A stretch of 64,000 nt of DNA from positions 15,206 to 79,205 of IMG/VR virus record IMGVR_UViG_3300039308_000034; one strand, given 5' to 3'. Origin of the DNA: a virus. The position numbers and the translations under genes were made by a program. Numbering within the stretch: position 1 is the stretch's first letter; every line of letters starts with the position of its first letter. Positions 3,001 to 16,091 of this stretch are shown piece by piece. Under the pieces are notes generated by a model. That model searched no databases. It was not told the origin of the DNA and saw nothing but the letters and a program-made list of their open reading frames with translations.

Positions 3001-4350
3001 GCCGCAAATAAGCCTGATCACACTGCAATTCAGTCAATGGGACTCGTCGATGTAAACGCTTTTGCCGCAGCCCGAAATGCCCTTGTTGAGTTAATGAAGC
3101 AGTCTGAAACTGCCAGCCAAAGAACGCCGACTGATCGCAGCACCCAAATCTACACGCTCGATGGAGATGTCTTGATCGGTACTGTTGAAACAGCGAATGA
3201 GCTTCGATCACTTCTTGTTGAAAATCAATTAACGCTGGATGAAGTTTGGGGTGTTCCTGAAGAGGCGTATGCAGTTTTAGAGCAAGCAGTAGGATCGATC
3301 GATTTTGGGAAACATCAGTCATCCTATGTTGTTAACGTCAAGTACACCAAAGACTACGACACTTACATTGGTCGAGGGAACCCCATCTATCGGCTACCTC
3401 AGTCAAAATGGCACAATCCCTTCCAAATTGGCAAACATGGTAATCGTGTTGAGGTTCTTCAGAAATACGAAGCTCATTTATTAGGCAACGCTGAGTTAAT
3501 GGCAGCCCTGCCGGAGTTATTTGGACAAACGATCGCCTGCTGGTGTGCTCAAAAAGGTGAACGGCTCACAGCAGACGACCCGCTCAAATGTCATGGACAA
3601 ATCCTTCTCAAAGCTTTACGCGGTGACTATCAGCAACCCACACCACCCTCAATCCAATATGCGGAAATCAAAACACTTCAGCCGATGCATGGGCTTTGCT
3701 TCCTGGCAGCTGGAGCCAATCAATACTGCGATCGTCCTGCACCCGGAATTACCCTTCAAGTTGATGATTGGGTTCTAGTTCATGACGTAGCAGAATCCGC
3801 CCGTCCGGGCATCGTCAGGGGCTTCATTCATGATGCAGATTATGAGGGACGCGACGGCAGTCCCAACAGCATCCTAGTGCAGCTAGAGGACGGCTCGCAC
3901 ATCATTCAACCTGCTGCCTGGATTGAACCCGCCGAACCAGGACGGGCGTATCTTGGCATTCGCAGTGGCGATCGGGTGCAAATTACTCAACGTCCTAGTC
4001 ACATCGACCTAATTGAGTTTGAGCAATGGAGAGAGCGAATCGTTCAGCGAGTGAATTGGTTTAACGGCTTGTTTGCCGTACAGGTGCCTGGTCGCCCTGA
4101 ACACAGCGTCCAGGACTACTCATTTAACCAAGTTCAACTTGTTTCACCAATTACTCTAGAAGTCCGTGAAACGGACTATAGCACTGAAATCTCACCAGAA
4201 GCTGTCGTGCAAGTTACGGAATCCGATGAACCCTCATTAGCAGAACTTCCTCCACCTAAAAAACGAGGACGTCCCCCAAGCCGCAGAACAACATTACTAT
4301 TCAACTCGCTCTTTTCTAGGAGATTTTCTCATGCCTCAATTACCCCCTAA
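1..4350 (+). CDS. Very large multidomain phage protein with DUF4326-like domain and several KOW/SH3-like modules (5' end outside window)
   Basis: Frame 1 is open from base 1 through the 199..4350 ORF. YIGRG...SKWHNPF...IACWC...CHGQIL resembles DUF4326; repeated F(E/Q)VGDRV-type motifs. Confidence 0.7.
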   Translation, partial: NNIAFRKSSNPPELRTRIHNQINRLKSGKALKPTVKKSEIAAAKQRFTVGTRIQGPDNQGEWKHGSVLQTHKKNTTFVIRFDDGSFSQRSITKLLQDGFIKSNAPIQEPERYSFEVGDRVTAKRYVEPTPGTVVEVRFPQVKVRFDKGSIERTHDASELTFYFESNHPYPELYLLEIEAQLKFSLQKLEQVGEEYWSPSQKRGSAGKWIKPGEKQNEQERERLEREQETLMAKAQCFAKANDIQIDGSEAHWVFHPRTWLSLDADLLALASLEKAGINHPYPEFHLHKLFQRLYQAIEQTDQPTIETLLDHIEKLQDCQSIENIAQELDNYSFAPIPRCARRYCNLPLARNYCPLRSIQVGDRVTVQYVQEHRAGKTNTLIVDRMGLFGGTGSNPDSHIQHGFTLEQILQHQRIPVSLHEQIKTCHNGEMIRYFEVLCDRCSCQRPEFVTKPSAKADSVCPMGSPNFEEKRRFARWKAVDEAIDRGFVEQQEDGLVKLICPYCTTETHLPTLQPLTESKQMSQLNNQELNILETGTPAWVKAALETRSSDDLPQNSGSSCRSCEDLDQTLQPQKALFTNLTSAWVKINANLLRKLQQELIDHPERAVRQHDPDRWHLYWRGEYLALHNYGETVEIIAHYDCSVTSVGGTMTQSKVEQFIRDWLKVDPTAEPAHNLIGQYDMTTPIGEIAMQVVAERNEEGQPFLLFEFCGIPKPVNYPNPNTVFIHRMPDELEGMEPTCNSPSGYAEFSARQMLAEFMATLDQEVEETLPILHKTLKQSGKQKEQQIQVCQEILRQIEATTVGTWWEPFEALRQKPYSAEFMRLVVKAATLRKLEKLGVATAIDQLFNGQRAWYSEQKDTSALATNLELSNPRPAVINGAAGIAYEVAIVQPGHPQLRGRVIEAGEAESIVEVPEFDQPVKVFNQFLAPLLSEKRRKQIERLRKAAASKKLTDRCDHRSISAALVVIANALETNTCPELLQKVSALSHVKALLLGEPATAAANKPDHTAIQSMGLVDVNAFAAARNALVELMKQSETASQRTPTDRSTQIYTLDGDVLIGTVETANELRSLLVENQLTLDEVWGVPEEAYAVLEQAVGSIDFGKHQSSYVVNVKYTKDYDTYIGRGNPIYRLPQSKWHNPFQIGKHGNRVEVLQKYEAHLLGNAELMAALPELFGQTIACWCAQKGERLTADDPLKCHGQILLKALRGDYQQPTPPSIQYAEIKTLQPMHGLCFLAAGANQYCDRPAPGITLQVDDWVLVHDVAESARPGIVRGFIHDADYEGRDGSPNSILVQLEDGSHIIQPAAWIEPAEPGRAYLGIRSGDRVQITQRPSHIDLIEFEQWRERIVQRVNWFNGLFAVQVPGRPEHSVQDYSFNQVQLVSPITLEVRETDYSTEISPEAVVQVTESDEPSLAELPPPKKRGRPPSRRTTLLFNSLFSRRFSHASITP

Positions 4351-4744
4351 CTGGACAGAATCCGATCGCATTCAGTGGAGCCAATTTGTTTTTCAGGTAC
4401 TGAAAGACTGGCAGGAGCAGCACCCTGGAGATTCTAGCATTCGCCTTTATGTCGATTTCGATCGATTATGGGGCACAGAAAAGGCAACTCTAGTAAACCT
4501 GGCAGCCCAGATTATCAATCGGTGGCTTGCCGAAGCTCCAGCAACGCCCCAATCACCTCAAGACAAACTATGCAATACCCTTGCCTTTTACGTTGAGAGT
4601 CATACTTCTGCCGCTGCCTGGGATGATTCTTTTCAGCGCCAACTTGTTCGAGATCTTATCGAAAATATTGATAAAACACTGGAGCAAACATTACCCCGCA
4701 TCACAGTTACCCCTTCATGCGCACTTGGAGGGACTGGAAATTGA
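4331..4744 (+). CDS. Hypothetical protein
   Basis: 137-aa ORF overlapping both neighbours in a coupled + strand operon. Confidence 0.65.
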   Translation: MPQLPPNWTESDRIQWSQFVFQVLKDWQEQHPGDSSIRLYVDFDRLWGTEKATLVNLAAQIINRWLAEAPATPQSPQDKLCNTLAFYVESHTSAAAWDDSFQRQLVRDLIENIDKTLEQTLPRITVTPSCALGGTGN

Positions 4745-5270
4745 CAAAGTTTGAAGTTCGCGCCCTCACCCTTTGGGAACCTTGGGCAACTTTTATTGCC
4801 CTACTCCTCAAAGAATACGAAACCCGCCCCAAAAGACTTCTCTGGCGAGGACAGCTATACATTCATGCTGCACAGCGAAAAGTCCGTCACGATGATCTGC
4901 TGGCAATTAAAGAAATTGCGGCAGGCACTCCATTAGTTGAGAAAATATTTTAACCAAACTTTGGACAGGACAGATCCCGGTGCATTATGGCTGCATCATT
5001 GCCGTTTGTGACCTGACCCAATCACTCGAAATGGTAGCGAATTCTGGTAATTCTGCCTCACGCGAGGGTAATGACACAATCGCAATTTCCAGTGTTTCAT
5101 CACTAGAACGTGCCGTTGGTAACTGGCAACCCAACCGGCATGCTCTCAAACTCGAAAATGTTAAACCGCTCATTCTCCCTGTTCCAGCACAGGGCAAGCA
5201 AGGGCTTTGGATTCCTGATGTACAAACCATTGAACAAGTTGAGGTAAACTTCCATGCAGCCACTTTTTAA
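4741..5270 (+). pseudogene. ASCH-domain protein split by a 1-bp frameshift near 4941-4950
   Basis: First half ALTLWEPWA...K.YETR...RGQLYIHAA (ASCH motif) stops at 4953. Frame 3 is open from 4941 and carries the second half YGCIIAVCDL...LENVKPLILPVPAQGKQGLW. Confidence 0.7.
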
Positions 5271-5700
5271 GCGCACCCAATACGCGATCAACATCCTGTG
5301 TAACGGAATTCCTGTACCCCTATCTCTTACACCAGCACCAATCGCTATCGCCCAGCAAGATGTCATTTCCGAAGTTCAGGAAATTGCAAACACTGCTCGC
5401 ACAATTGTCAAAGAGCGCAGCAAAACGAAATATGGGAACTTGCAAGTGTTTACTGATGGTGTTTTAACCATCACCACTGACTTAAAAACTCAATATGTCA
5501 TTATCGTCATCTGGACAGACGGAGGAAGCGATCGCATTTTTGATGTTGCCGCTAATGGACGGCTAGATCTGTTTGTTCGAGACGTAGTGGTTGGGGAATC
5601 TTGCGTAAATTGGATCGATTGGCTGAAAGAAATTGCAGCACAGCCAAATGCTGCAGATTTCGGACTAGATGTTGAGCTGCAGATGGAGAGCGATCGATGA
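5254..5700 (+). CDS. Hypothetical protein
   Basis: 148-aa ORF with ATGA coupling to the next gene. Confidence 0.65.
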   Translation: MQPLFKRTQYAINILCNGIPVPLSLTPAPIAIAQQDVISEVQEIANTARTIVKERSKTKYGNLQVFTDGVLTITTDLKTQYVIIVIWTDGGSDRIFDVAANGRLDLFVRDVVVGESCVNWIDWLKEIAAQPNAADFGLDVELQMESDR

Positions 5701-6317
5701 CTAATCCAATTCCTTTAATGCCAGACATCGAACCGGATGTCATTTTTACAAATGCCTGGTTTAACCCTGAAAACCATCAGCCTGCCGTCTACTGGCAGTT
5801 GAATAGCAAAAATGGGATTATCTCGCTTATTGAAGCTAGAGCCAGGGCGCAATCTCTGTTTCAAGCGGTAGGTTATGCCGAGGGGGAAGCAGCGATCGTC
5901 AAAGGACTAATACATCTGCACAAATCCGCCGAGCGCCCTCAAAAAGGCTTTGAGAATAAGCGCAAGACAGAAGATAAAGCACTAATACTGTCTGCCAAGC
6001 TGCGAGAGTTTTTGAAAAAGGGACGATCGCCCTTGATGGAAGGTGTTGAGGTAATTTTTGGGCTAAAAACTCGCAAAGCTTTGGTTAATTGTCATTGGTA
6101 CGGAGAGATGTCCCAATGGGAAACCACACAGGCAATTAACCATGCCATCGGACTAATTGAAACGGCTGAAGCATCTGAGAGCGATGCCTATTTTCGGTGG
6201 TTCCTCATGGAGCGAATCGGAATTGAGGCATCTGAAACCTATCCACTCATAGCAGAATTTCAAACGTTTCGGCATCGTAGGCAGCTAGAAGAAATATTTA
6301 GAGAAACAATCCTATAG
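5697..6317 (+). CDS. Hypothetical protein
   Basis: 206-aa ORF coupled to the upstream gene. Confidence 0.7.
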   Translation: MTNPIPLMPDIEPDVIFTNAWFNPENHQPAVYWQLNSKNGIISLIEARARAQSLFQAVGYAEGEAAIVKGLIHLHKSAERPQKGFENKRKTEDKALILSAKLREFLKKGRSPLMEGVEVIFGLKTRKALVNCHWYGEMSQWETTQAINHAIGLIETAEASESDAYFRWFLMERIGIEASETYPLIAEFQTFRHRRQLEEIFRETIL

Positions 6318-6434
6318 CTCAATAATGCGCTGACTCAAATTCATCAACAGAGCTAGAAGTTTCTTCAACCGAATTAAACCGCCCTACCAAGTTGTGCCTA
6401 ACCCTAAATCCTATGAGGGTTCTCGAAGATCCCT

Positions 6435-7811
6435 ATGAAAACATTAGAATTTAAAATCTATCCCAACAAAACTCAGCAGCAAACGATCGATCGGTGGATT
6501 GAAACCCTCCGCTTAGTTTGGAACTGGGGGTTAGAACTCTTGATTGAACTTGATGCTTACAGTGCTCCCTACGTCGTCATGGTTAAACAAGAGGGAGAAC
6601 TCAAAAAAACTTATCATCGTGCTCCCTGTTGTCCAATCGGATGGGAATACCGCTGGATGAAAGGAAAACGATGGGAGTTTACCTCAGGAAAGCTAGACAT
6701 TATAGAAGGGGCTAGCGACACTGATTGGGCTGCCATTCCTTACTCGCGTCGTGCTTCAAGGCGACCTTACCGAATGTTCTGCCCACTCATTCCTACAGGG
6801 CTGGACGATCGCATTTGGGAAGAACCCTCACCCTTTGCCTATAAAGAACCGCGCCTCGACAACCCCTCCAACTTCTCACTCGCCAAGTTCTTCGCTCACA
6901 AACGCCATCCAGATTGGCAGGCACTCAATGAAATCCCTGCTTGGTTTATTCGAGGAACCTGCCACAGCCTTGCTAATGCTTGGGACCGATATAAGTCTAA
7001 GAAAGGAGGACTTCCCCGGTTTAAGCGCAAGGGGGATGCGGTTGACACTCTAATTCACGAAGACGCCTCAAAGCTGCGAATCCGACGGGTTGATGAAAAA
7101 GGTCGAGAGGTGGCATATCTCCAGATTCCCAAGCTGGGCGAATTCAAAGTGAAATATTTTGCACAGGACTGGAATCAAGATGTTCCGGTGAAAGTGTTAA
7201 AGCTGTGCCGCCAGCCTGACGCTTATTATCTCCAGATGACAGGCAATTTACCTGTCAAGCCACCCAAAGTCAGCACTAGAACGGCAGGATTGGCTTTGCC
7301 ACAGGCACAAGGCATTTTGTATGTAGACGATCGCGGCAAGATGGTGGAGGCAATCCCTGAAGATCTAAAGCTGCTATTGCGCCTGGAAAAATTACAGCAG
7401 CAACTGGCACGCCAGGAGTATTTGTCGAAGAATTGGCATAAGACAAAAAACAAGATTGCGCGGCTGTATCGTCGAGCGAAGCTTCGGGCTAGAAATCACA
7501 ATCATAAACTCAGTACGTTTGTCGTGCGGAAGTTTAATGAGATTGCAATTCAGGATGTAAAGGCAGGAGCCATCCCTAGCCCAGAACCAATTGTGGAGCA
7601 CGTTGAACCGCCTAAATATGCGCCAAATGGTGCAACGCAGGTTTCGCTAATTAACCAGCGTCGTACTGCTATGCGAACTGGACAATTTGTTGCCTTGATT
7701 CAGCAAAAAGCTAAATCAGCCGGTAAAACAGTTATTAAAATAAAACCTAAAAAGAATGCGAAGCAAACAAACCCCGCTAAGATAGCAGCTAGTATCAAAC
7801 CCAAAGACTGA
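6435..7811 (+). CDS. tnpB: Nuclease-dead TnpB (IS200/IS605 OrfB)-derived protein, TldR-like
   Basis: N-terminal KTLEFKIYPNKTQQQTIDRW...LVWN, LPRFKRKG and bridge-helix NWHKTKNKIARLYRR motifs. RuvC-I reads AGLALP (canonical GIDLG), RuvC-II IAIQD (canonical IEDL); no CxxC Zn finger or DxNAA motif. Confidence 0.85.
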   Translation: MKTLEFKIYPNKTQQQTIDRWIETLRLVWNWGLELLIELDAYSAPYVVMVKQEGELKKTYHRAPCCPIGWEYRWMKGKRWEFTSGKLDIIEGASDTDWAAIPYSRRASRRPYRMFCPLIPTGLDDRIWEEPSPFAYKEPRLDNPSNFSLAKFFAHKRHPDWQALNEIPAWFIRGTCHSLANAWDRYKSKKGGLPRFKRKGDAVDTLIHEDASKLRIRRVDEKGREVAYLQIPKLGEFKVKYFAQDWNQDVPVKVLKLCRQPDAYYLQMTGNLPVKPPKVSTRTAGLALPQAQGILYVDDRGKMVEAIPEDLKLLLRLEKLQQQLARQEYLSKNWHKTKNKIARLYRRAKLRARNHNHKLSTFVVRKFNEIAIQDVKAGAIPSPEPIVEHVEPPKYAPNGATQVSLINQRRTAMRTGQFVALIQQKAKSAGKTVIKIKPKKNAKQTNPAKIAASIKPKD

Positions 7812-8047
7812 TACTCGCTCAGGGGTGGGTCTGGGCGTAATGAATGGGTAAGTCGCTCGCGCACCATTGTACAACCGAGGTAGGTGCTACCTCCGATCGT
7901 CCTAAGGCAGCACGCTGACGGCAAATCTGGAAAATCTTGTTTACCTGTTAGTAAACGTTACTGCATCGATCACACACTTTTCCCAAAAGAAGATCGCACT
8001 TCCAATTGACCTGACCTTATTCCGATCGCACTGTAGCGAGGCATACG
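7812..8047 (+). ncRNA. Putative omegaRNA/guide RNA of the dead TnpB
   Basis: 236-bp gap directly 3' of tnpB; hairpins at 7813-7830, 7877-7893 (GAGGTAG-gtg-CTACCTC) and 7939-7956 (GTTTAC-N6-GTAAAC), then TCAC at 7970-7973. Position is as expected for omegaRNA; no expression data. Confidence 0.5.
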
Positions 8048-9136
8048 CTAGACTGTCTTCCGGCTTCCAGGTAATAAATGGCGATATCGTCGCGCAATCA
8101 TCATTGGGATCTTGGCTTCTCTGGCAACGGCTGCTAATGTCGCGCGTTTACGTTTCTGGGCAAGCCGTTGAATTGCTGCCCGGACGCGACTGGGAACATC
8201 CTCGCCAAATTGAATTTGATGTAGAGCTTTAGGATGATGCCACAGCTTTTGGCATTCAATTCCAGTTGTTTGAGCAATCGCACCTATATGAACCGTAGAC
8301 CGTTGAGTTTGCAATTGAACGATCGCTGTTTGAACCTGCTCCAACACAACCTGCATTTCGCTTTGGGTTGCCCGTTGCCATTCTGGAAGTTCAGTTGCGC
8401 TTCCAGGATCTTCAAACTGTTGGCGCAATAAAGATAGGGCTTGATCCAAATATTGCTCTACGTCCCAGGTTGACCGCTCCAAGAACCGGGCAATTTCATG
8501 GGGCGATCGATTATCGACATAAGCCCACTCCACAATCTGCTGAAGCTCCTGGGGCAGGAAGTCGAGGATCGAGCGTAACTTTGAGAATAGGGACAATCTT
8601 TCGGGTACCATAACGGCTTCAGTTCCCTCATTGTCTGGGCAGGGAATTGTATGAAGCAGCGTAAATCCTTCCTCTCCCTGTTGAACTGGCGCGTCCAAAC
8701 TTACTGCTGAACAATTTGCCTGCTGAAGCTCTAAAAACTTTTCAACAGAGATACCCATCATTAACCGAACTTCCTCGTGAGTGGGCTGCCGTCCTAAGAG
8801 GCTGAACAATTCTGCTTCAGCAGCATACATTCGTCGCCTCAATTGCTTAATTTCCGAGGGAAGCTTCACCGCTCCGTTTTGACCCAAAAACTCACGCATC
8901 TTACCTTTAATGCAAACCCTGGCGTAAGGCAAGAATGCATGAGTCGGAATTAAACCCAGCCGCTCGATCGCATAGATTAACCCGTCATAGCCCACCATTT
9001 CAAGATCTTCTACATCCATCCACCCGTTGCGGCAAAGGGAACGAGCAATCGACTTAACCAGGCCACGATGTTGCTCAATGATGCGGTTACGAAGAACGGT
9101 TGAAGGATCTTGGATATAAGCTTCCAATAATTCCAT
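8048..9136 (-). CDS. Phage-encoded group 3 (SigF/FliA-like) sigma-70 family factor with C-terminal extension
   Basis: Region 2 RNRIIEQHRGLVKSIAR...EDLEMVGYDGLIYAIER, region 3 LGRQPTHEE...VSLDAP, region 4 HTH. Start placed at 9136 (TAATG coupling with the dnaN stop). Confidence 0.88.
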   Translation of the reverse strand: MELLEAYIQDPSTVLRNRIIEQHRGLVKSIARSLCRNGWMDVEDLEMVGYDGLIYAIERLGLIPTHAFLPYARVCIKGKMREFLGQNGAVKLPSEIKQLRRRMYAAEAELFSLLGRQPTHEEVRLMMGISVEKFLELQQANCSAVSLDAPVQQGEEGFTLLHTIPCPDNEGTEAVMVPERLSLFSKLRSILDFLPQELQQIVEWAYVDNRSPHEIARFLERSTWDVEQYLDQALSLLRQQFEDPGSATELPEWQRATQSEMQVVLEQVQTAIVQLQTQRSTVHIGAIAQTTGIECQKLWHHPKALHQIQFGEDVPSRVRAAIQRLAQKRKRATLAAVAREAKIPMMIARRYRHLLPGSRKTV

Positions 9137-10290
9137 TAGACAGACCTGATCTGGATCGGCATGGTCAGTCCTACATAATCCTCCCCGCCAATGGGACGAA
9201 TTACCGCCGGACTTGTGGATGTATTGCACTGCAGCACAATCTCTTTTGTGCTGATCGCCTTCAGGGTTTCGAGCAGATATTTTACGTTAAACGCAATATC
9301 CAAGTCATCTCCTGTAATTGTCGCTGGAATCTCTTCCCTACCACTGCCCACATCTTGAGCTTCAACCGATAGCACAATCGTCTGAGAAGGAACATTAAGG
9401 CTGAATTTCACAATGCTGTTTTTTTGGTCTGCCAGCACAGCTACGCGTTCCATCGCCCCAATCAGTTGACGACGATCGATATAAGCCTCTCGTCCGAATT
9501 GACGCGGGATTAGCTGGTTATAGTTTGGATACTGCCCTTCAAGCAGACGCGTCGTCATGACCATGTTTTCTTCACGAAACTCAGCTAAGCCTTTACCCAG
9601 CTTAAAATCAAAGGTTTCTTTCGCTCCATTGCACAAAATTGCTTCCAGCAGTTTGACTGCCTTGCCTGGAATGGTTAACGACCCAACCTCTCGATCCGCT
9701 GGCTCCTCCTCAACAACTTTGAAGCAAGATAGGCGATGCCCGTCTGTCGAAGCCCATTCCAGACGATCGGCTTCGAGAGTGAAATGGATTCCGGTCAACA
9801 CTTGTTTTGTTTCGTCATCGCTACAGGAATAAAGTGTATGGCGCAATCCCGCCAACATCTCAACTTTGTTGAGGGTCATTGCTGCTTCTTGAGGCAACTC
9901 AAGCTCAGGGTATTCATCAGCTGGCATACCACGCACTTGATAGCGCCCAACTGTTGCAGTAATTGTTGCAACATCTGACTCATCAACCGAAATGGTAAGT
10001 ACTCCTTCCGGCAAACGGGAAACAATATCTCCCAAAAGTTTGGCAGGAAGAGTAATTGACCCAGAGGACTGAACAACTGCACCCATACTGACGCAAATTC
10101 CAATCGATAAATCAAATCCAGTCAAGGAAATCTGCTGCTTATCTTGATTGACCACTAAAAGCACGTTTGCTAATACTGGTTGAGAAGGGCGATTCGGAAT
10201 TGCACGAGATACCAATGTTAGTTTTTCATTGAGTTCTTTCTGCTGACAATTAAACAAAATTGCAGCATCAGTTTTGAGTAGTGTTGCCAT
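9136..10290 (-). CDS. dnaN: DNA polymerase III beta sliding clamp
   Basis: PVLANVLL, LTGFDLSIGI, ASTDGHRL, RLLEGQYPNYNQLIP, IAFNVKYLLE motifs; 384 aa. Confidence 0.95.
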   Translation of the reverse strand: MATLLKTDAAILFNCQQKELNEKLTLVSRAIPNRPSQPVLANVLLVVNQDKQQISLTGFDLSIGICVSMGAVVQSSGSITLPAKLLGDIVSRLPEGVLTISVDESDVATITATVGRYQVRGMPADEYPELELPQEAAMTLNKVEMLAGLRHTLYSCSDDETKQVLTGIHFTLEADRLEWASTDGHRLSCFKVVEEEPADREVGSLTIPGKAVKLLEAILCNGAKETFDFKLGKGLAEFREENMVMTTRLLEGQYPNYNQLIPRQFGREAYIDRRQLIGAMERVAVLADQKNSIVKFSLNVPSQTIVLSVEAQDVGSGREEIPATITGDDLDIAFNVKYLLETLKAISTKEIVLQCNTSTSPAVIRPIGGEDYVGLTMPIQIRSV

Positions 10291-10453
10291 TTCCTAAAAA
10301 TCCTTTTTGCTTAATTCGATGGACGTGAGCATAGATTGTTCCGAGCGCATTGAAACGAATTACGGCAATTTCTTTGCGGGTTTTACCCAACTGGATCAAT
10401 GCTAGGACTTCTTTTTCAGCCTTCGTCAGCCCTGCTGTTTTCAATTTTGCCAT
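10268..10453 (-). CDS. Small LuxR/GerE-type HTH protein
   Basis: LTKAEKEVLALIQLGKTRKEIA...TIYAHVHRIKQK fits the LuxR HTH pattern. Confidence 0.75.
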   Translation of the reverse strand: MAKLKTAGLTKAEKEVLALIQLGKTRKEIAVIRFNALGTIYAHVHRIKQKGFLGNGNTTQN

Positions 10454-10701
10454 TCTCTACGAACCTGGATAAAACCAATAGTTGGATTAGCATAAGTCTT
10501 AAGCCAAACCTGATACTTTAAATAATCTCGATCATCAAACAGCTTTTTTAAATCTCCATCCTGTTCAGTTAGCGTTAATATCCGCTCCATTGAATGTGCT
10601 TCATATACTTCAATCGAGTGCCGAAACAACATCGCTTTTAATATTCGGGTAGGGCAGTCGAATTCTCCAACAATTTGAATAATTGGAAGGGATTCAGGCA
10701 T
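10441..10701 (-). CDS. Hypothetical protein
   Basis: 86-aa ORF coupled within the minus-strand operon. Confidence 0.6.
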   Translation of the reverse strand: MPESLPIIQIVGEFDCPTRILKAMLFRHSIEVYEAHSMERILTLTEQDGDLKKLFDDRDYLKYQVWLKTYANPTIGFIQVRREWQN

Positions 10702-13646: not shown

Positions 13647-16091
13647 TTATCGCTCCGACAAAAGACATTTATCGCTGTCACATCCAGCAGGACCCGCTTC
13701 GCTAATTTCCCCTTGGTCGTATCGGCTTAAGGCTACATAAAAGTCATCAATCTTTTGCCGCTGCAACACCTCTTTCAAGAGCTGATCGTACTTTGCTTGA
13801 TCAATCGGCTCGAATGGCAGACGTGGAAACGATTGATGGTCGTCAAACCGAGCCAGTAGGGTAGCAGAGATATAGCCCTCATCATTTTGAATTGCTTCGT
13901 AAATTCGCCGGGCAACTGCCTCAATTTCTGGTTCACGGAGTTCGATCGTTGCGGAAGTATTGTGTGCTGTATAGTGCTGTTGCACTTGCATATAGAAATC
14001 CAGCTGTGCCAGAGCCGAGAACTTGGAGATATCAATCTGGTCAGCTCCTGGCAGGTTTGCCCAACTCACTTCTACCGGAATTTCAACTAGCCATTCAGTG
14101 CAACGTGGTGAGAACGGATCGTTCAGTAAATTTCCCTGCTCATCCGTATCTGATTGAGCTGGAACTACGTTGTACCCATAGTCCAGACAAGCCAGTGCTA
14201 CTGGGTCATTTTTAGCAAAGGTGATTCGACGAATGCAGCGTTGCGCCTTGGGTGGGTGCCACCCTGGACTAGCACCTGTAAGAAGAGATTTTGTGCCGGA
14301 AGGTTGTACTGTTGTACAGCGATTAGGACATTTCAGCCCATGCTTGTCGCAATATTTCCAAACCTCACGGTGAACAATCGATTGCCAGAAATTGAGAAAA
14401 CTGGACTCTAAGAACGAAAAAATAGATGCAGTATTGCTTAGATCAACAGCATTCTCACCTGCAAACAGTGCAAGGAGTTCTGTAAGATTTGGATTTGCAT
14501 CGCAGCTATGCCATTCGATGGGTCGTCCGGCTTCCCACCAGCGGAGCCAGTCAACACCAAAGGCGTTAACGAAGAAATCAAATAGCCCAGTAAACGAGAC
14601 ACCGACAATTGGATCAAGCGATCGGGCTTCCTGGTATCGATCTTCAGTAAATTGATGATGCAATAGCCCCGCGACGAAAAGAGCACCTGCTGTAAACGCA
14701 TCATTCTGTTCCACAAGGTTCAGTGGATCAATTCGGTTGAGATGCACCTCGGAAAGATTGCAGTGGAAATTCGATGAAATAATTTCACCACAGGGATTTA
14801 GGGCATAGCGGATGATTCGATGATGCAACTCAGCTGCATCCATTTCTCTTCCATATTTCTGGAAAAATAGCTCCTGTAGATGTTCCTGCGCTAAGGATTG
14901 ATCCTCGTCATAATTTTCTAGAAACAGCTTTTTTTCGTAAGTTGTGCAGATCAGATCGCTGTTTGACCTGGCGACCGCCTCCCCTGCCCACTGAATTGCC
15001 CCTTCACCCGATTCATACTGAAGGTGTACTGCCTCCCAACATTCCTCTAAGGTTGGCTTACGGTGATAAACGCGAGTGTGATTTGCCATTCGCAGCGCGT
15101 CGCGTTTAGGGTCAATTTGCCAGTTTCCAGCTTCATCCTGACTCCAGAGGTTGAGCTTTAGCTGCGGATAGTCCGCGTCAAACTGACGAATTCCAGCACT
15201 TCTCCTGACGTTTCCTGCCACAACACATCGCGAGGCTTCATCAATCAACAGACAGCATTCTTCTGGGGTAAGCTGCCGCTCGATCGCCCCATTCAACAGG
15301 TGAGCCACTCTAGGAAATAGCTCTGGTAGCTTGCATGGATTTGCTACCCCCCCAAATCCATGCAAGCGTTCTCCCTGAGGCCGCACATAATTGAGTTCCA
15401 CTTGAACATGAAGCACTGACCCTATTGGGATATGCAATCCCTGCGGCATATCAAGCAGTCCAGGCTTTACAAACTCAGGCACAAAAATTGCAGAAGCTAG
15501 ATGCAGCAGTGATTCATATGCCTGCACCCATCCTTGGCGGCTATCGCCCACCTTAATGACAAACGACCAATAGTTTTGCGCGGACCAATCCTCAATTGTC
15601 GAAACCTCCCGCTTTGCCGAAATTCCTCCTGGTTGACCCAAAATGGAAACTTGCAATCGGTTCCGAATTACAGGCAGTTGGGAAATGCAGCGACTTTCTA
15701 GCACTGCTCCTGTGCCACAGCCCATCATTGCCAATTCCATAAGTAACCCAAAACTGCGCCAGTCTACTACCTCAGTCCCTGTGCAGTTATAAGCTCCTGA
15801 AAAATTTTCAGGCTTTTCTAGCCAGGGAGTTCCCCCAACCCAGAGCCAGCGACCTGATGGCAAGGCTTTGAGGGAGCGCTGCATCTGATTTAGTAAATGG
15901 AATTCTCCAGTTGAGAATTTTCCTAACTGGATGGCTCCAGCAAGCGTTCGATCGCATACTTCATTCCAGGATTCTCGCTGCTTTGCTGCTGTATTCCATC
16001 GGCTATAGGTTCGAGAAAACACAGGGTTGGCAGTTGGCGCAAAAAAATCGGATTTGACTTGGGATAGCATGGCTAACTTACTAAAGGACAA
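13647..16091 (-). CDS. nrdJ: Class II (adenosylcobalamin-dependent) ribonucleotide reductase
   Basis: PSGRWLW, YNC, VVAGNVRRSA, RMANHT, LNPCGEI...CNLSEV, TTVQPSGTKSLL and C-terminal GPAGCDSDKC; 814 aa, no intein seen. Confidence 0.93.
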   Translation of the reverse strand: MSFSKLAMLSQVKSDFFAPTANPVFSRTYSRWNTAAKQRESWNEVCDRTLAGAIQLGKFSTGEFHLLNQMQRSLKALPSGRWLWVGGTPWLEKPENFSGAYNCTGTEVVDWRSFGLLMELAMMGCGTGAVLESRCISQLPVIRNRLQVSILGQPGGISAKREVSTIEDWSAQNYWSFVIKVGDSRQGWVQAYESLLHLASAIFVPEFVKPGLLDMPQGLHIPIGSVLHVQVELNYVRPQGERLHGFGGVANPCKLPELFPRVAHLLNGAIERQLTPEECCLLIDEASRCVVAGNVRRSAGIRQFDADYPQLKLNLWSQDEAGNWQIDPKRDALRMANHTRVYHRKPTLEECWEAVHLQYESGEGAIQWAGEAVARSNSDLICTTYEKKLFLENYDEDQSLAQEHLQELFFQKYGREMDAAELHHRIIRYALNPCGEIISSNFHCNLSEVHLNRIDPLNLVEQNDAFTAGALFVAGLLHHQFTEDRYQEARSLDPIVGVSFTGLFDFFVNAFGVDWLRWWEAGRPIEWHSCDANPNLTELLALFAGENAVDLSNTASIFSFLESSFLNFWQSIVHREVWKYCDKHGLKCPNRCTTVQPSGTKSLLTGASPGWHPPKAQRCIRRITFAKNDPVALACLDYGYNVVPAQSDTDEQGNLLNDPFSPRCTEWLVEIPVEVSWANLPGADQIDISKFSALAQLDFYMQVQQHYTAHNTSATIELREPEIEAVARRIYEAIQNDEGYISATLLARFDDHQSFPRLPFEPIDQAKYDQLLKEVLQRQKIDDFYVALSRYDQGEISEAGPAGCDSDKCLLSER

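Follow-up and report, generated by a model that had tools for sequence, protein, structure and literature searches.

A 64,000-nucleotide stretch of viral DNA (the window; positions 15,206 to 79,205 of IMG/VR record IMGVR_UViG_3300039308_000034) carries, from position 6435 to about 8050, a gene for a catalytically dead Cas12-like protein, a conserved and covarying RNA directly behind it, and a few short repeat-derived units. We think it probable that this locus is a minimal, nuclease-dead module of the CRISPR-Cas type, of V-U2 descent and carried by a tailed cyanophage, which acts as an RNA-guided DNA binder or silencer without cutting. It would have three components: the dead Cas12 (dCas12), a scaffold resembling a trans-activating CRISPR RNA (tracrRNA), and a vestigial array (7968 to ∼8050) in which two or three repeat ends each precede a short guide. 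The scaffold would pair with the terminal nucleotides of each repeat through CGAUCG on both sides, and the GUG in the loop of hairpin 1 would probably pair with the terminal CAC of the repeat. The RNA, once made and bound by the protein, would direct the complex to guide-complementary DNA beside a protospacer- or transposon-adjacent motif (PAM or TAM). Having lost the RuvC triad, the Zn finger, and RuvC-III, the protein would stay bound there without cutting and would keep the target from being transcribed or replicated, as Cas12m, Cas12c, and TldR do.

A more specific version is advanced only tentatively, namely that the window represents a phage-borne dead V-U2 subtype in which a tracrRNA-like scaffold serves arrays of mini-repeats (∼8 to 11 nt) with a dozen or more guides of ∼14 to 16 nt, for multiplexed silencing of rival phages or the host.

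The Cas12-like protein and its relatives

The 458-residue protein has a WED/REC N terminus with a conserved CCP...CP cysteine motif and a RuvC remnant, and belongs to the TnpB/Cas12 superfamily. Two Pfam models match above their curated cut-offs, HTH_OrfB_IS605 at residues 2 to 38 (E 9e-10) and OrfB_IS605 at residues 312 to 379 (E 3e-9), and the Cas12f1-like TNB (Zn-ribbon) model is sub-threshold at 14 bits versus a cut-off of 26. An AlphaFold2 model built on 24 clade members (mean predicted local distance difference test score 81.8, predicted template modeling score 0.68) has the WED/REC/RuvC fold, and its best matches in a Foldseek search of the PDB are ISDra2 TnpB (E 2e-14), Cas12p, Cas12f (1e-7 to 1e-9), and dCas12f, with Cas12k and Cas12m also among the matches. 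A first interpretation made from the nucleotide sequence alone (the sequence-only reading) had described a recognizable TnpB scaffold, and the domain and fold matches bear this out. It had also described loss of the RuvC-I Asp and RuvC-II Glu and of the Zn finger and RuvC-III, all of which alignment with active relatives confirms: Ala replaces the RuvC-I Asp (GLDVG to GLALPQ; AGLALPQ in the window), Gln replaces the RuvC-II Glu (AVED to AIQD; IAIQD in the window), and there are neither CxxC pairs nor an RDxxAAxNI motif of RuvC-III. The Zn finger (CxxC...CxxC) and RuvC-III are missing because the protein ends before them. The triad positions are thus Ala, Gln, and absent, in place of the D-E-D triad and Zn finger of active TnpB.

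A Cys/Trp-rich stretch at about residues 42 to 135, following the first helix, is the low-confidence part of the AlphaFold2 model, and its C65, C66, and C116 are invariant or nearly so in the clade. The same stretch aligns in active V-U2 relatives, and only ∼20 residues of it are peculiar to the P0001-P0003 subclade. The segment described at first sight as a ∼90-residue insertion after the N-terminal helix is therefore real without being special to the dead protein, and it is a trait of the family that has no tie to inactivation.

The window protein had 55 matches in a search of 5.8 billion proteins. The nearest ∼22, at 37 to 60% identity, are unnamed or labeled "transposase" and come from cyanobacterial metagenome-assembled genomes and metagenomes, and the more distant ones include V-U2 effectors, which carry the NCBI name type V CRISPR-associated protein C2c8 and match at E 1e-23 to 1e-50. 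The sole match from a cultured phage is the V-U2 effector of Aphanizomenon phage CL131, which is catalytically intact and lies ∼250 nt upstream of an array of 36-nt repeats; a regulatory role has already been suggested for this intact cyanophage system (PMC6293099).

Catalytic positions were tabulated for 66 proteins and a maximum-likelihood tree was built. The window protein falls in a clade of 26 rows (support 100/100), all of which lack the RuvC-I Asp, the Zn finger, and RuvC-III, and all but three of which lack the RuvC-II Glu. The sister of this dead clade is a pair with Asp, Glu, and Lys at the three positions, and active V-U2 proteins, including that of CL131, surround both. Nested among these active proteins, the window protein belongs to the C2c8 protein clade; as it lacks a catalytically competent RuvC, it is filed as a dead V-U2 derivative and not as a regular member of the type. 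The sequence-only reading had proposed an independent exaptation of a transposon TnpB, and this part of it does not survive: because the protein is nested in the cyanobacterial V-U2 tree and close dead relatives still carry CRISPR arrays, we place it as a dead branch of the CRISPR-associated V-U2 Cas12 proteins and not as a fresh TnpB domestication.

In the two sister proteins, P0023 and P0024, the RuvC-I Asp and RuvC-II Glu are present and the Zn finger is largely preserved, but Lys stands at the position of the RuvC-III Asp; they may represent an intermediate stage of inactivation. The tree also contains a second, independent dead V-U2 clade of five rows from cellular cyanobacteria (Gloeocapsa, Chroococcidiopsis). 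Four loci of this clade (L011, L013, L022, and L024) are on cellular cyanobacterial contigs of the Chroococcidiopsidaceae type and encode proteins with long Cys-free C-terminal tails; L024 also has a three-repeat array.

The dead form has been conserved over a long time. All members of the window's clade are intact open reading frames on different contigs, the clade has 31 invariant columns, and the proteins are 45 to 75% identical despite saturated synonymous sites. Among ten coding sequences nonsynonymous divergence (dN) is 0.17 to 0.64, synonymous divergence (dS) is saturated in nearly all pairs, and omega is 0.08 to 0.15 where computable; since dS is saturated for most pairs, dN/dS gives only a bound. 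The intact reading frames, the low dN against saturated dS, and the invariant columns together rule out random decay. The homologs are thus not decaying insertion sequence copies, and the earlier suggestion of a catalytically dead, RNA-guided-type protein that is selectively maintained holds.

Scaffold RNA and repeat arrays

The 236-nt gap behind the gene (7812 to 8047) is real and opens with a scaffold block shared with related loci (Table 1). This block lies directly 3' of the gene in the window and in L034, L003 (as two tandem copies), L038, L002, and L033, and upstream of the gene on the opposite strand in L035, L039, L040, and L041; as it stays beside the gene in either arrangement, the RNA gene is a unit of its own that accompanies the protein gene. 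A covariance model (R1) built from the scaffold core finds exactly one site in the window (83.9 bits, E 9e-22) and one site beside every near relative with enough flank (E 1e-13 to 1e-27). At these loci an array oriented like the RNA comes after each scaffold, and the linkage of the RNA to both gene and array is thus obligate. The candidate guide RNA of the sequence-only reading accordingly has a conserved counterpart among homologs, and the region downstream of the gene is both conserved and covarying.

An RNAalifold alignment of 11 sequences yields hairpin 1, hairpin 3, and a long-range stem, with compensatory changes in 17 of 23 predicted pairs. In the two hairpins, which comprise 16 pairs, the paired share of cells is 96.6%, versus 74.7% in shuffles and 37 to 62% when the partner is slid, and changes on both sides occur in 15 pairs, which none of 500 shuffles reaches. 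Scans of the window against Rfam and for tRNAs and tandem repeats gave no match at the locus. In the second dead clade, R1 also has weak, correctly placed matches within the 3' gene ends, and the RNA region overlaps a long C-terminal tail of the reading frame in the homologs of that clade and in L006, L007, and L008; omegaRNAs likewise overlap tnpB. Another match, in Chroococcidiopsis C49, adjoins a photosystem-like gene and is probably spurious.

The segment that follows hairpin 3 covaries with the repeats' 3' ends. Array units end in ..GAUCGCAC or ..UCGACAC where the locus has CGAUCG in this segment, and in ..GUUGCAC or ..GCUGCAC where it has CAACCAACC (L035 and L040), the CAACC form of the anti-repeat. 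In L006 and L007, direct reading of the sequence gives 13- to 15-nt complements of their own repeat 3' halves upstream of the arrays. A conserved structured RNA with a complementary anti-repeat, as in tracrRNA-dependent type V systems, thus appears to be present. The GUG of the hairpin-1 loop (7825 to 7827) is invariant in 11 of 11 aligned scaffolds, and all units of the clade end in CAC. Because of this invariance, and by analogy with Cas12p and other Cas12 tracrRNAs, which form a pseudoknot with the repeat 3' end (bioRxiv 10.1101/2025.01.20.633832), we infer that the loop GUG pairs as a pseudoknot with the CAC at the ends of the repeats.

The window itself has two or three repeat-end units and not a regular array; GATCGCAC has only four forward copies in 64 kb, two of them in the gap. 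Regular CRISPR arrays with 36- to 37-nt repeats and 31- to 40-nt spacers are present at the dead homologs L005 (6 repeats), L006 (9 repeats), and L007 (∼13 repeats), and regular arrays also accompany the active relatives L008, L014, L015, L029, and CL131. The arrays in L003, L034, L038, L037, and L035 are irregular, with units down to 22 to 40 nt, and keep the last ∼8 to 11 nt of the repeat (..CGATCGCAC, ..CGATCGACAC, ..AAGTGGAAC, or ..GTTGCAC). The guide boundaries given for the window in Table 1 are provisional ones that follow from the layout of its repeat ends.

Several relatives show further arrangements. L003, the locus of P0007, has two tandem scaffold-plus-array modules (8245 to 9080 and 9085 to 10500) with ∼90% identical scaffolds in a 2.5-kb gene-free stretch, and its second array has slightly different repeat ends, ..GATCGACAC or ..GATCGGCAC. 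In L041, an identical 35-nt segment composed of a repeat end and its adjacent guide flanks the array-scaffold-dCas12 module on both sides (2245 to 2285 and 3922 to 3962), which could be a duplicated unit or a footprint of module movement. The Stenomitos contig L046 was considered as a continuation of an array and rejected as a k-141 graph overlap.

Table 1. Features of the dCas12 locus in the window, with positions of guide matches between related loci
Feature	Position	Strand	Basis or remark
Nuclease-dead, C-terminally truncated Cas12 gene, assigned type V-U2 descent	6435..7811	+	458 aa; Pfam, alignments, motif tables, tree, AlphaFold2 model and PDB fold search
Conserved core of putative tracrRNA/omegaRNA-like scaffold RNA	7812..7907	+	Starts right after the stop codon; covariance model R1 and covariation
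Hairpin 1, loop GUGG at 7825-7828	7816..7837	+	Pair counts, invariant columns
Hairpin 3, GAGGUAG-GUG-CUACCUC	7877..7893	+	Compensatory changes in 7 of 7 pairs across 11 sequences
Putative anti-repeat CGAUCG	7894..7899	+	Covaries with array unit ends
Distal scaffold part	7908..7967	+	Alignment and RNAalifold; window row aligns only loosely
Degenerate repeat end GATCACAC, then candidate guide g0 (7976-7991)	7968..7975	+	Resembles L038 units ..GATCGACAC; weakest of the three units
Repeat end GATCGCAC, then candidate guide g1 TTCCAATTGACCTGACCTTATTCC (8000-8023)	7992..7999	+	Relatives' arrays of the same unit
Repeat end GATCGCAC, then candidate guide g2 (from 8032)	8024..8031	+	g2 runs into the sigma stop codon, 8048-8050
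L003/L034 guide matches to L007	L003:8514, 8893; L034:9897; L007:10639, 10716		L007 sites on minus strand

Phage setting, targets, and alternative explanations

The window is part of an 80.7-kb IMG/VR record that is classed as a provirus and was cut from a contig listed as 199 kb. It encodes a tape-measure-like protein of 3,990 residues with a PhageMin_Tail domain, two endolysin-like proteins, ribonucleotide reductase, a thymidylate-synthase-like protein, DnaB, DnaN, and a sigma-70-type factor with regions 2, 3, and 4 by Pfam (8048 to 9229, convergent to the dCas12 gene). The gene was earlier described as an intact reading frame in phage surroundings with no tnpA nearby, and both points stand: no TnpA-like Pfam match was found among the eight neighboring reading frames scanned (4331 to 10701), and the gene is single-copy in the viral record. 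The linked tnpA or multiple copies typical of IS200/IS605 were thus not seen, and the left and right transposon ends had no dedicated search. The minus-strand block containing the sigma gene also includes, right upstream of dnaN, a gene for a 61-residue LuxR/GerE-type helix-turn-helix protein (10271 to 10453, minus strand). We note also that one related phage contig carries an ordinary TnpB with all three Pfam domains 4 kb from its dCas12 gene (L037:13319-14503), and that hints of Csf1 and Csf3 upstream of P0002 did not hold up at E 0.01 or better.

In an all-against-all comparison of the reading frames within 6 kb of 17 dead-clade genes, no neighbor family recurs in more than two loci. As no neighboring protein recurs, the module consists of the protein and RNA only and is self-contained.

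Searches for targets with g1 and g2 against the window, allowing up to three mismatches, returned only the guides themselves. Because no guide matches the viral record, the target most likely belongs to the host or to a rival mobile element and not to the phage itself. A first hint of array targets may come from the relatives, in which two L003 guides, one of them common to L034, match tail-region genes of L007, another phage with a dCas12 gene, with one mismatch each, at sites 77 nt apart on one strand. The chance of this is roughly estimated at ∼0.005, for matches of 14 to 17 nt found after many comparisons. The window also contains, between 13367 and 51518, eight real and well-conserved 28-bp sites of the form GGTTCGGAYGGT-N6-AAAAAGTGTTT, which share only the 8-mer ACACTTTT with the dCas12 gap. 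This 8-mer (7974 to 7981) was considered as a target link to the sites and is not counted, as only 6 nt of it fall inside a guide and the next site positions vary.

Several observations weigh against an RNA-guided silencing module in the window. Its array, very short and with a degenerate first unit, could be a decaying remnant of the RNA part beside a conserved protein, and its distal scaffold is shortened relative to the long-range CAAGCAUCU/AGAUGCUUG stem around AGAACCnnGAAAACU of its relatives. The 11- to 14-mers of 7960 to 8075 gave no match to the 80.7-kb record within g1 or g2. The only window guide tried more widely, g1, has no match in IMG/VR and, in 401 cyanobacterial genomes, one chance-level match with three mismatches inside an sbcD-like coding sequence. 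The spacers of L005, L006, and L007 gave nothing convincing against the local loci, a phage collection, the 401 genomes, IMG/VR, or their own records. The sole public run that contains the locus sequence is a DNA run, and no RNA run contains it. The thermodynamic stability of the gap is unremarkable (minimum free energy z = +1.19, neither strand significant), and the structure is therefore shown by covariation and not by energy; of the "structured 236-bp gap" of the sequence-only reading, the gap and its covarying structure hold, and any unusual stability does not.

Other roles for the dead protein can be envisaged. It is conceivable, if unlikely, that the dCas12 does more than block sterically and uses its Cys/Trp-rich REC segment to dock some unlinked host or phage factor, for example thioredoxin or a nuclease. 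The conserved CCP...W...FCP motif that includes C65, C66, and C116 falls in that low-confidence region of the model, and the REC lobe of the phage-encoded Cas12p has a TB domain with Cys and Trp that binds host thioredoxin (TrxA) (10.1101/2025.01.20.633832). However, hidden Markov model matches to Cas12p cover only the C-terminal half and give no support for homology of the insertion to the TB domain; moreover, TrxA boosts cleavage in Cas12p, an activity that is absent here, and there is no linked partner gene.

Slightly less likely still is RNA-programmed repression of the phage's own late or lytic genes, or of those of its close relatives in the manner of superinfection exclusion. The paired L003/L034 guide matches in the tail region of L007 and the classification of the viral records as proviruses are consistent with such a role. 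Those matches are short, though, and do not distinguish self- from cross-targeting; nothing in the window's record matches its guides over 11 nt or more, and L006 and L007 likewise lack matches to their long spacers in their own records.

The convergent sigma gene was proposed in the sequence-only reading as a candidate partner, and the dCas12 could in principle recruit that factor to guide-specified sites as an RNA-guided activator. In its favor, the sigma gene neighbors the dCas12 gene, its stop codon adjoins candidate guide g2, and dCas12f-sigmaE provides a precedent (PMC13472631). Co-occurrence fails, however: tblastn found no homologs of the sigma gene, DnaN, or the upstream neighbors within 6 to 8 kb of the gene in ∼30 homolog loci, some on short contigs, there is no Sigma70 Pfam domain among the called genes at the eight homolog proteins looked up, and the sigma gene is seen only in the window. 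The genes are also convergent, not co-oriented in an operon, and the sigma factor has regions 2, 3, and 4 and is not of the extracytoplasmic function (ECF) type, leaving this activator role improbable.

A decaying, functionless IS200/IS605 tnpB remnant would account for the lost catalytic residues, the truncation, and the "transposase" label in public records, but is scarcely credible given more than 20 distinct intact dead homologs (37 to 60% identity) that form a clade and are too divergent to be assembly duplicates of one sequence, the saturated dS with low dN, the conserved and covarying partner RNA, the lack of a TnpA-like match in neighboring reading frames, and the single copy in the viral record.

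Relationship to known systems and implications

To our knowledge, V-U2 has no experimentally defined mechanism and is the one type V "U" subtype without a published mechanism. Among the closest described systems is that of CL131 (PMC6293099), with which the window protein shares 28% identity over 95% of its length, an N-terminal MKTLEFK...W.WN motif, a Cys-rich REC segment, and, in its clade, the order of gene, a few hundred nucleotides, and a co-oriented array with repeats of ∼36 nt. Both occur in cyanobacteria and cyanophages without cas1 or cas2. The CL131 and other V-U2 effectors differ in keeping the D/E/D triad and the CCCC Zn finger, all of which the truncated proteins of the window's clade have lost, and the arrays of this clade have often decayed to 8- to 11-nt repeat ends, with only two or three units in the window.

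TldR proteins are similar in having a dead RuvC, a C-terminal truncation, short guides, an adjacent scaffold-plus-guide RNA, and, in the fliC-associated clade, phage carriage (Wiegand et al., bioRxiv 10.1101/2023.11.30.569447; PMC13622181). Steric repression has been demonstrated for TldR and is only proposed for the window protein. TldRs descend directly from transposon TnpB; each has one fixed guide and is linked to a cargo gene (fliC, oppF, or csrA) whose paralog it represses. The window's clade is a dead derivative of the TnpB/Cas12 superfamily with an adjacent putative guide RNA, as TldR is, but it descends from CRISPR-associated Cas12 and has multi-guide arrays, no linked cargo gene, no membership in the fliC, oppF, or csrA clades, no guide against a paralog promoter, and no target found.

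The dCas12f proteins, both sigmaE-linked and CRISPR-associated, are also dead miniature Cas12 proteins; like TldR, they have lost the C terminus, and one dCas12f cluster adjoins CRISPR arrays (PMC13472631). The AlphaFold2 model of the window protein matches the dCas12f structure 9n9c at E 1e-7. They are of V-F lineage in Bacteroidota, versus V-U2 in cyanobacteria and their phages, and the conserved linkage to sigma-E genes of the ECF type (PMC13472631) is absent from the window's clade.

Cas12m (V-M) and Cas12c use array-encoded guides, and the silencing by binding that they perform is the mode proposed here. They keep a RuvC site that is used for CRISPR RNA (crRNA) processing; in the window protein the triad is gone, so any pre-crRNA processing must fall to host RNases, and the fold similarity is weaker (E 1e-5). 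Cas12k (V-K, formerly V-U5) of the cyanobacterial CRISPR-associated transposons is likewise a cyanobacterial, naturally dead Cas12 with a long tracrRNA, and reportedly uses truncated repeat-spacer units with short guides (bioRxiv 10.1101/2021.02.06.429022). It belongs to a different clade and is always linked to Tn7-like tnsB, tnsC, and tniQ, none of which was seen in the neighbor clusters or among the Pfam-annotated genes of the homolog loci, most genes of which carry no family.

Cas12p ("Cas12 hacker", PDB 9jfs) is a phage-encoded miniature Cas12 and the top or near-top match in both sequence and fold. Its tracrRNA is 185 nt long and its repeat 37 nt, and in the solved single-guide RNA complex no more than the last 10 nt of the repeat are ordered (bioRxiv 10.1101/2025.01.20.633832), matching the logic of the decayed repeats in the window's clade. 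Cas12p is nonetheless an active nuclease of 500 to 700 residues that needs host TrxA, and it belongs to a different family, with profile matches mainly over the RuvC half.

No description of the dead V-U2 branch or of its RNA was found in full-text literature searches. Dead Cas12 and TnpB derivatives are known, and that of the window forms a lineage of its own, marked by phage carriage and by unusual mini-repeat arrays. The dead Cas12k, Cas12m, TldR, and dCas12f-sigmaE each revealed a new use of RNA-guided DNA binding. The window's clade, which resides mostly in cyanophage-like elements, adds another independent loss of nuclease activity, and according to the tree such a loss arose twice within V-U2. 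Its arrays range from regular CRISPR through all intermediate stages to minimal repeat ends and so offer a view of the repeat length that a type V effector needs, and the compact protein (400 to 460 residues) with natural multi-guide arrays could serve as a small CRISPR interference (CRISPRi) tool for cyanobacteria. If the multiplex silencing suggested above is true, the clade would amount to a self-contained protein-RNA unit, passed between cyanophages, that works as a natural multiplex CRISPRi cassette. The targets of the module would tell whether phages use it against hosts, rivals, or themselves.

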